From the sequence record AY587007.1: DNA of 64,000 nt. The stretch is one strand, 5' to 3'. The notes beneath the pieces are model-generated. The model had not been told where the DNA came from. It saw only the letters and a program-made list of their open reading frames with translations, and searched no databases. This DNA comes from Escherichia phage T5. Of this stretch, positions 26,712 to 55,754 are shown piece after piece (the stretch's first letter is position 1; each line of letters starts with the position of its first letter). The position numbers were made by a program, and so were the translations under genes.

Positions 26712-27059
26712 TTAGTCGTAGCACCACCATAACCCACGCTTACGCATGTCATGATCGCGATTATAGTCGTAATTTTCTGGATCTTTCATCACGCGGTGGA
26801 GTTCTTGACGATTACCTTGACGAACCATTTTATTAGAATGCCACTTAACACTCTTACTAACAGAACTCCAGCTATAACCATCCTTTTTCTCATTACGAAT
26901 GGTTGCTTCTTCCATTTCTTGTTCTACCTTATCCCAGGATTTAGCATAAGTAACACGAATCCAGTAGCCACCCGCTTTGAGGAAAGTATATTCCTGGGTG
27001 TAATTAGCTTTAGACTTCCACCACTGATCACCAGATTGTTTACGATAAGTACGGCTCAT
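26712..27059 (-). CDS. hypothetical protein
   Basis: 115-aa ORF. Confidence 0.45.
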   Translation of the reverse strand: MSRTYRKQSGDQWWKSKANYTQEYTFLKAGGYWIRVTYAKSWDKVEQEMEEATIRNEKKDGYSWSSVSKSVKWHSNKMVRQGNRQELHRVMKDPENYDYNRDHDMRKRGLWWCYD

Positions 27060-27180
27060 ATTACCTCCATTAAGTCTTTTAAATTAACCTAATGTGGATG
27101 AATTTTATTATACATAAATTATTTACCTATATACAGAAAAACCCCAGACTACTTATTCAATAGCTGGGGTTTGTTATTAA

Positions 27181-27495
27181 TCACAGATCGGGGTGCTTAT
27201 CTTCTAAACTGTCCGAGCTAATATATTCTCCGGATCCTACGAAGCCATCAAATTCATCATTTGAAATATCCGTAATCATTGCTTCCATTTTCCTAATCTC
27301 CGAGGTTTTCATCCCTGCTTTACTATTCTTAAAGTGTTTGCGAGGATTCCCGCACATCCAACAAGAACAGATACAAGGAGTAGTAGTGATAATACCTAAC
27401 CGTTTAGGGCTTTCTTCATGTGGGAAGACTGTCCAGTATTTCTTGCGGTTGTTCTTCACACGTTGCCGGTGATGACGTCTTAATGCTCGATCCAC
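27181..27495 (-). CDS. hypothetical Cys-containing protein
   Basis: 104-aa ORF with CICSCWMC segment. Confidence 0.4.
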   Translation of the reverse strand: MDRALRRHHRQRVKNNRKKYWTVFPHEESPKRLGIITTTPCICSCWMCGNPRKHFKNSKAGMKTSEIRKMEAMITDISNDEFDGFVGSGEYISSDSLEDKHPDL

Positions 27496-27576: not shown

Positions 27577-27945
27577 TTACATCGCCTGAGTAAATGTACG
27601 ACTAATAACGTCGTTCTGCTGTTCACGCGTCAGTGCGTTAAAACGCACAGCGTACCCTGAAACACGGATAGTTAATTGAGGGTATTTTTCAGGATGTTTC
27701 TGTGCATCCAAAAGCTGATCACGACTTAACACATTGACATTTAGGTGTTGACCACCTTCAATTTGAGGGGCGACTTCCACTTTGACTTCACGAAAGGATT
27801 CGGGGTCAAAATGAGGTGTAATACCTTCTAGATCTTCAACTAGAACTTTTTGTTTAAGTTCACCATCTTTAGAATATAATTGAATAATCTGATTATTATG
27901 AACAATATTAATTACGCCAGATTTAAGATTTTGATACGCTTTCAT
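27577..27945 (-). CDS. grcA: autonomous glycyl-radical cofactor, GrcA/YfiD-like
   Basis: C-terminal ~60 aa ([11 protein letters not shown] ... [23 protein letters not shown]) match E. coli GrcA as recalled, including the RVSGY glycine-radical motif; start set at ATG 27945 with RBS AGGAG, giving 122 aa. Confidence 0.7.
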
Positions 27946-28130
27946 TAGATCTCCTGGTTGGTAGTTAGTAGTGGATTTGAACCACTGTAGTCGCTCCGTA
28001 TGAAGGAGGTGCATAACCACTCTGCCAACTAACTATTATGTTTTACTAGGCTAAGTAAGTATTCTTTGTACTCCTTAGACCAACTAGCTTTTTTAAACTT
28101 TCCTGGACGCATAGTCTTAATTCCTAGATT

Positions 28131-28543: not shown

Positions 28544-28572
28544 ATTATAGCAATAAATAAGAGAGAAAGCAA
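28544..28572 (-). promoter_or_regulatory. T5-type early promoter, -35 TTGCTT, 17 bp, -10 TATAAT
   Basis: hexamers on minus strand. Confidence 0.6.
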
Positions 28573-37923: not shown

Positions 37924-37985
37924 ATATGTTATGGATGAGTGATCAAAGAGACACACATTTTCTATATACTAGGAGGTGTCAAAAA

Positions 37986-38393
37986 ATGACAGAAGAAGTA
38001 GCTAATAGTCCTGAGACCGTCGCTAGCGTTGCAGCAGAACTGCACCGTCACGAGGAATCAGATAAGAAAAAGTGGGAGAAGGTCAGAGCCTACGAAGAAG
38101 AACATTGTGAACACGATGATAAAGATGATGAACATTGTCATAAATATGGAAAACATAAAATGCAAGAACCAGTAAACGTATTTACTAACGGCTTCCCTGG
38201 CATGGGTGCATTCCCGGCTAACGCAGGTGCTTTCGGTGGTGAAGGTATGGGCCTATTCGGAGCTATCCTAATCGGTGCTCTATTAACAGGCGGATTTGGT
38301 GGTTTTGGTAGTTTTGTCGCGGTGCTGGCGTTGCCGCTGAAGGAACTGCTGTGGACGCGATCCTTTCTAACCAAGATACTGCAAGTATTCTAG
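37986..38393 (+). CDS. His/acidic N-terminus, Gly-rich hydrophobic C-terminus protein
   Basis: start at ATG 37986 with RBS AGGAGGT; segments HCEHDDKDDEHCH and GFPGMGAFPANAGAFGGEGMGLFGAILIGALLTGGFGGFG. Confidence 0.5.
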   Translation: MTEEVANSPETVASVAAELHRHEESDKKKWEKVRAYEEEHCEHDDKDDEHCHKYGKHKMQEPVNVFTNGFPGMGAFPANAGAFGGEGMGLFGAILIGALLTGGFGGFGSFVAVLALPLKELLWTRSFLTKILQVF

Positions 38394-38950
38394 CTGCAAT
38401 CAACACTACTCGTACAGAAGCTAACCAGGACACTGGGGCTGTTCTAAGCGCAGTAAACGGTGTGGGAGCTGCTCAAGCTGCTAGCACTCAGCAAGTTCTG
38501 ACTACTATCTACGGTACAGGTGCTAATCTGTCAAACCAGATCTGTGCTGAAACTCGTAACGTTATTCAGGGTCAGTTCGATCTTTCTCGTCAGATGGATC
38601 AATCTTTCGCTGCTAACCAGATCGCACGTGCTCAAGATAAGTTTGACTCTGCTCAGATTGCTTTCCAGCAGTCTATTCAGACTAACAACCAGTTTGCCGC
38701 TGTTCAGGCTCAGATGTGTGCTAACCAGAATGCTATAGAACGTCAGCTTGCTGAATGTTGCTGTGAGCTTCAGACTGCGATCGCCGGTGTAACTACTGCG
38801 CGTATCCAGGACGAACTGAATGAATGCCGTCTGCGCGAAGCAATCGCTGCAGGTAGCGGTGCAAATGGTCAGGTAATCAACCAAATCGCTGTAAGTCTTG
38901 GTGCTATCACTCAGACTCTGGCTGGTCTGCAGGCTAAACTGCCGGCTTAA
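38351..38950 (+). CDS. Ala/Gln-rich low-complexity protein
   Basis: GTG start with RBS AAGGA; overlaps the previous gene by 43 nt in the -1 frame; contains CCC triplet AECCCE. Confidence 0.4.
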   Translation: MDAILSNQDTASILAAINTTRTEANQDTGAVLSAVNGVGAAQAASTQQVLTTIYGTGANLSNQICAETRNVIQGQFDLSRQMDQSFAANQIARAQDKFDSAQIAFQQSIQTNNQFAAVQAQMCANQNAIERQLAECCCELQTAIAGVTTARIQDELNECRLREAIAAGSGANGQVINQIAVSLGAITQTLAGLQAKLPA

Positions 38951-45377: not shown

Positions 45378-45893
45378 TTACTTCGCTTTACGCTTGCGAG
45401 CTGGTTTAGCAGATTTACGAGCAGAATCGCCCGTGAATTTAATCCCTACACCGTAGCACAGAGCACGAACGTTATCTTTGCTATACTCTACACCGAAGAT
45501 ATTTGGCTTAACAGAACCAAACTGTCCACGAGCATCACGCAGTACATCTGCCGTTGGTTTACGCTTCTGGTTAACTGCTTTCTCATAATCTTTCATGGCC
45601 ATGCCATTACGAGAGAACAATTCAGCTCCAGCATTGAAACTCAGTGTTACTGGAACAGATTTGTGACCATAACCCTGTACATAGGTCACAAGGCGGGCTA
45701 CAGAACGAGTAGCATTCTTAGCCTTCGGCTTTTGACGAATCGGAGCCGGACGATTCAGTGCCTGTGCAGCTTGAGCATCAGTAGGATGCTTGCGCAGGTG
45801 GCGTTCCAGACGAGCTTTGCGGTTAGCCTCAGTCTGCGGGAAAGTTTTAACTGTAGTAGCTGCTTGAGTTTTTGCGTTTTTCTGCTTAGCCAT
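45378..45893 (-). CDS. basic protein, possibly DNA-binding
   Basis: 171-aa Lys/Arg/Ala-rich ORF. Confidence 0.5.
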   Translation of the reverse strand: MAKQKNAKTQAATTVKTFPQTEANRKARLERHLRKHPTDAQAAQALNRPAPIRQKPKAKNATRSVARLVTYVQGYGHKSVPVTLSFNAGAELFSRNGMAMKDYEKAVNQKRKPTADVLRDARGQFGSVKPNIFGVEYSKDNVRALCYGVGIKFTGDSARKSAKPARKRKAK

Positions 45894-53879: not shown

Positions 53880-55754
53880 ATGAATCGCAATGATGAACTA
53901 AAATACAAGGAAATCCAGTCCTTGATTAGAAACTGCAAAGAAATTATTGAGGGTTCTGCTGATGAAGAGCTTCTCTTTAATAATGCGAATAAACCCTCTG
54001 AGCGTTTCCCTACACAAAGGGATATGCTTGCAGGGGAATTGAGTAAATATCTGATTCTAGAAGAAATGCCAGTTCAGATTCGAAATGCTCATATGATTGG
54101 AGATATTCATTTCCATGATGCTGACTACGCTGCATTAGGCATGACTAACTGTTGCCTAGTAGCTCTAGAAGATATGTTGAAAAATGGTATGAAAGTTGGT
54201 AATGCTGAAATTAGTACACCAAATTCTATTACTACTGCGGCGGCTATTACAGCTCAAATTATCACACAGGTTAGCTCCCATCAGTATGGTGGTACTTCTG
54301 TAGACCGATTAGATGAAGTATTGGCCCCTTATGTTCGTAAGTCTTATGATAAGAATCATGCGTTTGCAAAACGTTGGACTAAGGATGAAGCCAAAGCATC
54401 AGTAATGGCTACGGAGATGACTGAAAAAGAAGTCTATGATGCTTGTCAGGGTCTAGAGTATGAGATCAATACGATGTTCAACTCTAATGGTCAGAGTCCA
54501 TTTATTACTTTTGGTTTTGGTCTAGGAACTTCTTGGGAAGCACGTCTAATACAGAAAGCAATACTGAAAGTACGTATGGATGGCTTAGGCATCAATAAAC
54601 GTACAGCTATCTTTCCGAAACTGGTGTTTGTTCTGCGTGATGGCGTAAATATGAAGCCTGGAGATGTTAATTATGACATCAAGAAGTTAGCTATGAAATG
54701 TACTGCTGAACGTATGTATCCAGACTATATCAGCTATGATAAGGTTGTGGAAGTTACTGGTGACTATAAAGTTTCTATGGGCTGCCGTTCATTCTTAGCT
54801 GCTACAGAAGATGGTGAAACTGCCGGTCGTAATAACTTGGGTGTTGTTTCTGTAAACTTGCCTAGAATTGCTATCGAAGCTGAAGGGAATATTGATCTAT
54901 TCTTTGATTTGCTTGAGCTACGTGTGGATACAGCGTTAAAAGCATTGGAGTGGAGAGTTGATCGCTTAAAATACATTCAAGCTAAAGCCGCACCCATCCT
55001 CTATATGTCAGGGGCCTTTGGATTACGCTTAGGGCCTGATGAATATGTATTCGATCATTTCTATAACCGTGCTTCTGTATCTCTGGGGTATATTGGTTGC
55101 CATGAAATGCTACAGTTCATGTTTGGCAAAGATGTAGATACAATGTCTGAGACCTGCATCAAGTTTGTTCAGCGTGTATTGCAGTACATGCGGGATAGGG
55201 TCGATCAGAAGAAGGAAGAGACTAAGTTAGGTTATAGCCTGTATGCTACACCATCAGAGTCCCTATGTGATCGCTTCTGTCGTCTAGACCGTGAATATTT
55301 TCCGGAGCATGAAGATATTCTGTCCAAAGGATACTACACTAACTCTCACCACCTTGATGTGGAACGTAAAGTTGCTCCTAACGTGAAATTTGATTACGAA
55401 TCTAACTTTACTCCGATTGCTTCTGGTGGGTGTATCTCTTATGTAGAACTACCAGATATGAAACGATTCCCAGATGCACTGGAATGGGTTATTAATTATG
55501 CTGCTAGTAAGGTTCATTACTTCGGTATTAATACTCCAGTGGATTCCTGTGGTAAATGTGGATTCTTAGGTGAAACAGTAGCATCCGAAGATGGATTTAA
55601 GTGCCCTATCTGTGGTAATCATGACCCTGAAACTCTTGAAGTAACTCGTCGAGTTTGTGGGTATCTTGGAAATCCAGGTGCTCGTCCGTTTAACCCAGGA
55701 AAACAACATGAGGTTATGGGCAGGGTGAAACATCAGGATATTCGAGCTAAATAA
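53880..55754 (+). CDS. nrdD: anaerobic ribonucleoside-triphosphate reductase
   Basis: 624 aa; C-terminal CxxC ... CxxC zinc ribbon followed by glycyl-radical motif RRVCGYLG. Confidence 0.7.
   Translation: MNRNDELKYKEIQSLIRNCKEIIEGSADEELLFNNANKPSERFPTQRDMLAGELSKYLILEEMPVQIRNAHMIGDIHFHDADYAALGMTNCCLVALEDMLKNGMKVGNAEISTPNSITTAAAITAQIITQVSSHQYGGTSVDRLDEVLAPYVRKSYDKNHAFAKRWTKDEAKASVMATEMTEKEVYDACQGLEYEINTMFNSNGQSPFITFGFGLGTSWEARLIQKAILKVRMDGLGINKRTAIFPKLVFVLRDGVNMKPGDVNYDIKKLAMKCTAERMYPDYISYDKVVEVTGDYKVSMGCRSFLAATEDGETAGRNNLGVVSVNLPRIAIEAEGNIDLFFDLLELRVDTALKALEWRVDRLKYIQAKAAPILYMSGAFGLRLGPDEYVFDHFYNRASVSLGYIGCHEMLQFMFGKDVDTMSETCIKFVQRVLQYMRDRVDQKKEETKLGYSLYATPSESLCDRFCRLDREYFPEHEDILSKGYYTNSHHLDVERKVAPNVKFDYESNFTPIASGGCISYVELPDMKRFPDALEWVINYAASKVHYFGINTPVDSCGKCGFLGETVASEDGFKCPICGNHDPETLEVTRRVCGYLGNPGARPFNPGKQHEVMGRVKHQDIRAK

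Follow-up and report, generated by a model that had tools for sequence, protein, structure and literature searches.

The window analysed here is the left 64 kb of the Escherichia phage T5 genome, with T5 genome position 1 as its first letter, and the 2-kb region around the gene of interest, T5.056, is 99.9% identical to Escherichia phage T5. T5.056 belongs to a minus-strand transcription unit of the T5 early region that runs in the order P11, T5.058, tRNA-Ile, tRNA-Met, T5.056, T5.055 and terminator. The features of this unit that are used below, listed from the promoter downstream, are as follows:

28544-28572, minus strand: early promoter P11 (TTGCTT, 17-nt spacer, TATAAT, TGn), from the NC_005859 annotation with the hexamers read from the sequence
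27959-28034, minus strand: tRNA-Met gene (ARAGORN and NC_005859), with its 3′ end 13 nt upstream of the T5.056 coding sequence
27951-27955, minus strand: Shine-Dalgarno sequence AGGAG of T5.056, read from the sequence, with the ATG (27945) 5 nt downstream
27577-27945, minus strand: T5.056, coding sequence of a GrcA-like autonomous glycyl-radical protein (translation, Pfam and NC_005859 annotation)
27766-27945, minus strand: N-terminal half, T5.056 residues 1-60 (alignments, AF2 model and dN/dS)
27580-27765, minus strand: glycyl-radical domain, T5.056 residues 61-122, matching PflB 698-759 and YfiD 66-127
27646-27666, minus strand: RVSGYAV motif, T5.056 residues 94-100, read from the sequence
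27181-27495, minus strand: T5.055, a basic protein of 104 aa, downstream of T5.056 in the P11 unit
27135-27172, minus strand: Rho-independent terminator (CCCCAG...CTGGGG followed by TTTTTCT), read from the sequence, which ends the unit after T5.055

The minus-strand translation of T5.056 yields 122 aa with no internal stops and a stop codon at 27577-27579, confirming the protein that the initial annotation had placed at 27577-27945 without naming a strand. A GTG at 28020 was considered as a longer start and was rejected because it would run into the tRNA-Met gene, and we therefore take the ATG at 27945 as the real start. The ORF lies between a tRNA gene and the following ORF, so that it stands alone, and it carries no ten-stranded catalytic barrel. 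P11 escaped a simple promoter scan, since only three of the six bases of its −35 element agree with the consensus. NC_005859 annotates a terminator at the place equivalent to 27135-27172, and the next gene past it, T5.054 (26712-27059, minus strand), gave a full-length match to Pfam DUF7295 (E = 2e-55).

The C-terminal half of T5.056 was recognized by Pfam Gly_radical (PF01228) over residues 62-103 (E = 3.6e-18, 66.5 bits against a cut-off of 22.2). In phmmer searches the best matches among solved structures were GrcA/YfiD (6owr, E = 1.6e-30) and PflB 698-759 (E = 4.6e-27), and the radical domain was also aligned to the PFL structures 1cm5/1h16. Comparison with the E. coli K-12 GrcA and PflB sequences, both confirmed against NC_000913, gave 74% identity to GrcA over 74 aa (BLASTP, E = 4e-39) and 79% identity between the C-terminal 62 residues and the C-terminus of PflB (698-759), so that the resemblance to GrcA and to the PFL C-terminal domain that had been proposed for this half of the protein is borne out. 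The RVSGYAV motif is intact, and it falls among the 40 alignment columns that are invariant in 32 diverse homologues. Within this motif Gly97, encoded by GGG at 27657-27655 on the minus strand, is the predicted radical site and is equivalent to PflB Gly734, which in PFL is the site both of the radical and of cleavage (PMC8683613).

Over its full length T5.056 is 53% identical to T4 Vs.6/Y06I (E = 1e-40) and matches phrog_1209 from end to end (residues 1-122 against 1-121 of 121, 5.8e-48). The NCBIfam GrcA equivalog model TIGR04365 ('spare_glycyl') scored T5.056 at 121.5 bits, under the curated cut-off of 170; this shortfall arises because only residues 50-122 match the model and the N-terminal half is divergent. 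Judged by these alignments, T5.056 belongs to the phage Y06I branch and is not a strict orthologue of bacterial GrcA. We conclude that T5.056 should be called an autonomous glycyl-radical cofactor of the Y06I type.

The existing names for the gene differ among records. In NC_005859 it is a 'putative acetyltransferase-related protein', a name obtained via InterPro IPR001150, in AY692264 it is a 'pyruvate formate-lyase related protein', and one T5-like record calls the orthologue 'putative autonomous glycyl radical cofactor GrcA'. Elsewhere orthologues are labeled inconsistently as 'acetyltransferase', '2-ketobutyrate formate-lyase', 'pyruvate formate-lyase', 'ribonucleotide reductase subunit', 'primosome assembly protein' or 'hypothetical protein', and in Citrobacter phage YZU-L1 a truncated version of 67 aa is annotated. 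Many T5-like records thus mislabel the gene, and beyond cleaning up this annotation the result for T5.056 matters little.

In pairwise comparison the N-terminal 50-60 residues or so of T5.056 have no significant match to E. coli GrcA, with which they align only in the family alignment, and the N-terminal half is instead common to T4 Y06I (MKAYQ..., DPE.F, REV.VE). An AF2 model of T5.056, of moderate confidence overall (mean pLDDT 75), places a four-stranded beta sheet in residues 1-60 (strands 2-6, 12-16, 19-26 and 29-36, pLDDT about 84). In the C-terminal half it places two helices, at 75-83 and 107-117, and between them a hairpin (92-95/98-101) with Gly97 at its tip. The structured half is thereby predicted to have the fold of PFL 693-759, composed of a strand, a Gly-loop hairpin and a C-terminal helix, and a Foldseek search with the model returned YfiD (6owr, E = 6e-6, TMt 0.74) first and PFL (2pfl, E = 5e-4) second. 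[quoted passage not shown]

The gene is widely kept. About 430 phage records carry T5.056 at 90% protein identity or above (more than 400 T5-like genomes), and 1585 phage records in total carry a grcA-like gene, with related genes also found in jumbo phages and Vibrio phages. Comparison of T5, Shivani, EC148 and the Epseptimavirus phagemcphageface gave dN/dS values between 0.035 and 0.18 at dS values that reach 0.59; constraint is seen in each half of the gene, with 0.05-0.14 for the N-terminal half. These rates indicate that T5.056 orthologues are under strong purifying selection. The order tRNA-Ile, tRNA-Met, grcA-like gene is kept in the same four phages, and the position of T5.056 is conserved in Tequintavirus and Epseptimavirus; Priunavirus has a variant of the gene. 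In the distantly related Demerecviridae member Providencia phage PSTCR5 (Priunavirus) a longer grcA-like variant lies in the tRNA region, annotated as a CDS of 173 aa (L013:2168-2689) with the glycyl-radical domain and a longer N-terminal part that includes a hydrophobic stretch, VGAVITIPTVVSFIMVCPI. The start codon of this CDS is uncertain; if the annotation is right, the product could be a membrane-associated spare part.

The DNA of the T5.056 radical domain is 70-72% identical to T4 vs.6 and to E. coli grcA and pflB, with the protein at 77-79%, and its third codon positions are 44-48% identical to host grcA and pflB. Such low DNA and third-position identities lead us to regard the radical domain as an old resident of the T5 lineage, and because it is equidistant from T4 Y06I, GrcA and PflB, no donor can be named. 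The T4 gene looks to have had another history: over the last 62 codons, T4 vs.6 (L006:3001-3363) and E. coli K-12 grcA (L008:1567-1950) share 96% DNA identity and 95% third-position identity. The N-terminal half of Vs.6/Y06I resembles T5.056, and the 3′ half of the gene looks recently replaced by host grcA sequence. In AY692264, nrdD lies at 45755 as compared with 53880 in the window, and the grcA-like region is collinear with T5.056 kept, which implies that about 8.1 kb has been lost from within or beyond the tRNA region, between about 29 kb and 53.9 kb.

A second glycyl-radical protein is encoded further along the window:

53880-55754, plus strand: nrdD, class III (anaerobic) ribonucleotide reductase, 624 aa (Pfam NRDD)

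The identification of nrdD at this place, made earlier from the letters alone, holds, with Pfam matches to NRDD (E = 3.4e-172, 574.5 bits) and Gly_radical (E = 6.7e-23) and with 53% identity to E. coli NrdD and 51% to T4 NrdD. T5 NrdD retains Cys79, Cys290, Asn311, the zinc-binding residues C543, C546, C561 and C564, and Gly580 (T4 numbering). An Asn in place of the third Cys is the mark of formate-dependent NrdD (PMC11226230), and by these residues T5 NrdD is accordingly of the formate-dependent type.

The T5 genome was searched for a radical-SAM activase by tblastn, phmmer and a three-sequence NrdG profile. The queries were E. coli NrdG and PflA (confirmed exact), T4 NrdG and a Vibrio-phage NrdG, and the profile was built from the three NrdGs. 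Across NC_005859 1-113900, in six frames, no NrdG or PflA homologue was found (best E about 0.8); the sequence beyond 113900 belongs to the right terminal repeat, which according to its annotation has the same sequence as the left repeat. NrdG and PflA are likewise missing from the annotated genes of NC_005859. The view in the initial annotation that an activase is missing thus stands and now extends from the window to the rest of the genome, but its supporting statement, that the window has no CxxxCxxC ORF, was wrong, as the motif occurs at 27352-27375 and at 38840-38863.

The first of these matches, 'CICSCWMC' at 27352-27375, lies inside T5.055. We considered T5.055 as a mini-activase and rejected it: at 104 aa it is too short when set against the 154-246 aa of the glycyl-radical activases compared, it matched no Pfam family, the NrdG profile scored it at the level of noise (E = 0.8-2.5), and distant homologues have another residue in place of the motif's first Cys, which leaves CSCWMCGNPRK as the conserved core. 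Homologues of T5.055 were found only in T5-like phages. On this evidence the CX3CX2C in T5.055 is a chance match. This small protein is very basic and, with its CSCWMCGNPRK cysteine cluster, may bind metal. In Tequintavirus it shares a transcript with the grcA-like gene, and some relatives lack it or encode a truncated form. The grcA-like gene is kept both in T5-like phages whose T5.055 is truncated and in phagemcphageface, where an ORF of 52 aa, different from T5.055, takes its place.

The ORF that holds the second CX3CX2C in the window (38840-38863) is on the minus strand, antisense to the annotated plus-strand gene T5.077; it was rejected as a radical-SAM enzyme on account of this antisense position and a best Pfam E-value of 0.065, which is not meaningful. 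T5.077 itself (37926-38950, plus strand) is a single CDS of 321 aa in NC_005859 and appears in the window as two overlapping ORFs, 37926-38393 and 38351-38950, from which we conclude that the T5 sequences differ by a frameshift.

The arrangement of an NrdD without its activase is shared with other phages. Phage records with NrdD numbered 2908 as compared with 2273 with NrdG, and the NrdG matches included only 126 Salmonella-named phage records, as against 270 Salmonella-named T5-like records. Phages with nrdD only were described in 2013 (Dwivedi et al.), in a survey that names T5 for its nrdD-phoH-nrdAB layout (PMC3653736), and what we found in T5 (phoH flanked by nrdD and nrdAB, with nrdG absent) does not differ from that description.

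The host, E. coli, has pflA, pflB, grcA, nrdG and nrdD. With no activase in T5, T5.056 and NrdD would have to rely on host PflA and host NrdG, respectively, and such reliance, already suggested in the initial annotation, would be the only simple reading of a T5 genome in which our searches found no activase gene. The radical loop of NrdD (Gly −12 to +24) is 70% identical between T5 and E. coli, as compared with 53% over the whole protein, and VTRRVCGYLG is present in both loops, whereas E. coli and T4 NrdD share 51% in the same loop and 59% over the whole protein. This likeness of the T5 loop to that of E. coli is suggestive, fitting recognition by host NrdG, and spans 37 residues only. T4 NrdD has been reported to need T4's own NrdG; if so, host NrdG should not be assumed to activate the NrdD of a phage.

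The nrdD gene also varies between T5 records. NC_005859/AY543070 are without 150 nt, in frame, at about 55053-55202 of the window, which removes NrdD residues 392-441 including the conserved RASVSLGYIGCHE, and at the junction the blastn segments on either side of the gap share about 7 nt. The gap probably reflects a crippled NrdD in that laboratory stock or an assembly error in the record. If it is read as an in-frame deletion of 50 aa, NrdD would be dispensable in the laboratory.

Three known systems frame the reading of T5.056. T4 Vs.6/Y06I is the nearest, being likewise phage-encoded, small (120 aa as compared with 122 aa), begun with MKAYQ, equipped with a PFL-type radical domain and placed in the same PHROG family; the two differ in that the 3′ end of T4 vs.6 is recently host-derived whereas T5.056 has long evolved on its own, and in that T4 has its own NrdG next to nrdD whereas T5 has none. 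E. coli GrcA/YfiD (TIGR04365; 6owr) shares with T5.056 the RVSGYAV loop, the fold of the structured half and the size (127 aa as compared with 122 aa). The likeness to PflB 698-759 extends over all 62 aa of the domain and includes the last residues, ...TRTFTQ.M. Unlike PflB, T5.056 has neither the catalytic barrel nor the Cys418/Cys419 site, and it could therefore act only in complex with damaged PFL.

In YfiD and T4 Y06I alike, PFL-AE installs a glycyl radical, and both proteins make oxygen-cleaved PFL active again, as related in the passage of PMC8683613 that quotes Wagner et al. 2001; the result is repeated in a 2026 review (PMC13450708), and YfiD and Y06I are the only experimentally validated spare parts (PMC8683613). 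By full-length homology to Y06I, for which that passage gives the activity in vitro, the earlier proposal that T5 supplies a spare radical domain for host PFL under oxidative stress gains support by analogy. We therefore consider it highly probable that T5.056 is a phage-borne 'spare part' like GrcA/YfiD and Y06I, an autonomous glycyl-radical cofactor that works via host activases.

The steps by which such a spare part would act can be set out as follows. T5.056 would be made early in infection from P11, along with the phage tRNAs. Oxygen would cleave host PflB at its Gly734 radical, and T5.056 would then dock on the cleaved PflB, where its C-terminal 62 residues would stand in for the lost radical domain. 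The host radical-SAM activase PflA would put a new radical on Gly97, and PFL turnover of pyruvate to acetyl-CoA and formate would resume. Binding to cleaved PflB, and the physiological benefit that would follow, are what we infer from the homology set out above. The need for a phage-borne copy may lie in host shut-off: the annotation note for T5 A1 reads 'degradation of host DNA and required for shutoff of expression of host genes', and a host with its DNA degraded and its expression shut off could not make new GrcA or PflB.

We weighed four other explanations. T5.056 could be a decaying, functionless fragment of host pflB or grcA, since its C-terminal half resembles a copied segment of a host gene and it sits in the tRNA region, with AY692264 having lost about 8 kb between it and nrdD. 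The selection on the gene makes this very improbable: dN/dS stays at 0.035-0.18 across T5-like genera that have reached a synonymous divergence of up to 0.59, the N-terminal half that it has in common with T4 Y06I is constrained too, and the gene has its own Shine-Dalgarno sequence, a position conserved across genera and a place in AY692264 itself. About as little credit goes to the idea that T5.056 is a spare radical domain for phage NrdD rather than for host PFL. Both genes are in one genome, oxygen also destroys NrdD at its glycyl radical, and PMC8683613 speculates on spare parts for other glycyl-radical enzymes. However, it is the PflB C-terminus to which the domain is 79% identical, and the radical region of NrdD differs (VTRRVCGYLGNP) and follows a zinc ribbon (CxxC...CxxC) that is absent from T5.056. 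In addition, the full-length homologue T4 Y06I works on PFL in the account given by PMC8683613.

Somewhat less remote, while still improbable, is a role as a decoy or modulator that soaks up PflA or binds PflB and so redirects host fermentation, for instance by curbing formate and acetyl-CoA production or changing its timing. The N-terminal half would suit such a role, as it differs from the half of GrcA that recognizes cleaved PFL and its predicted state is folded, not disordered, but the radical loop and the C-terminal helix retain all of their catalytically required residues, which a pure decoy would not need, and the T4 homologue restores catalysis in the experiments that PMC8683613 quotes. 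The least credible of the four is that T5 encodes a non-canonical activase, for which T5.055 would be the obvious candidate, and does not depend on host activases. This ORF, with its 'CICSCWMC', is directly downstream of T5.056 in the same operon, but its length of 104 aa, the missing Pfam family and the profile E-value of 0.8-2.5 argue against it, as do the replacement of the first Cys in distant homologues, which reduces the core to CxCxxC-GNPRK, and the relatives that keep the grcA-like gene with T5.055 truncated or replaced. A spare part for host PFL that depends on host activases remains our preferred reading of T5.056.

Much of this was known beforehand: the observation and its interpretation are already contained in existing annotation, in the T4 precedent and in the 2013 survey of ribonucleotide reductases. 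A phage-borne spare part for a host fermentation enzyme is an example of an auxiliary metabolic gene, and T4 has provided an established case of this since 2001. The modest addition made here is a proposed link from the formate made by PFL to the reductant of NrdD. PFL is a source of formate. With formate as the reductant of NrdD, repair of PFL by T5.056 would also sustain anaerobic dNTP synthesis. Among the papers we searched, none linked a phage GrcA to the formate supply of NrdD, and none treated pyruvate formate-lyase or GrcA in the context of T5-like phages.

In its fullest form, this link would make T5.056 and NrdD two coupled, oxygen-sensitive glycyl-radical proteins of T5-like phages that run entirely on host activases, in which PFL formate in the microaerobic gut feeds NrdD and the N-terminal domain of T5.056 is adapted to the capture of cleaved PFL. 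We offer this form tentatively and think it rather doubtful. If the coupling is true, T5.056 would be part of a nucleotide-supply strategy and not a general energy-metabolism gene, and its folded N-terminal domain, common to T4 Y06I, would catch cleaved PFL better than host GrcA does.
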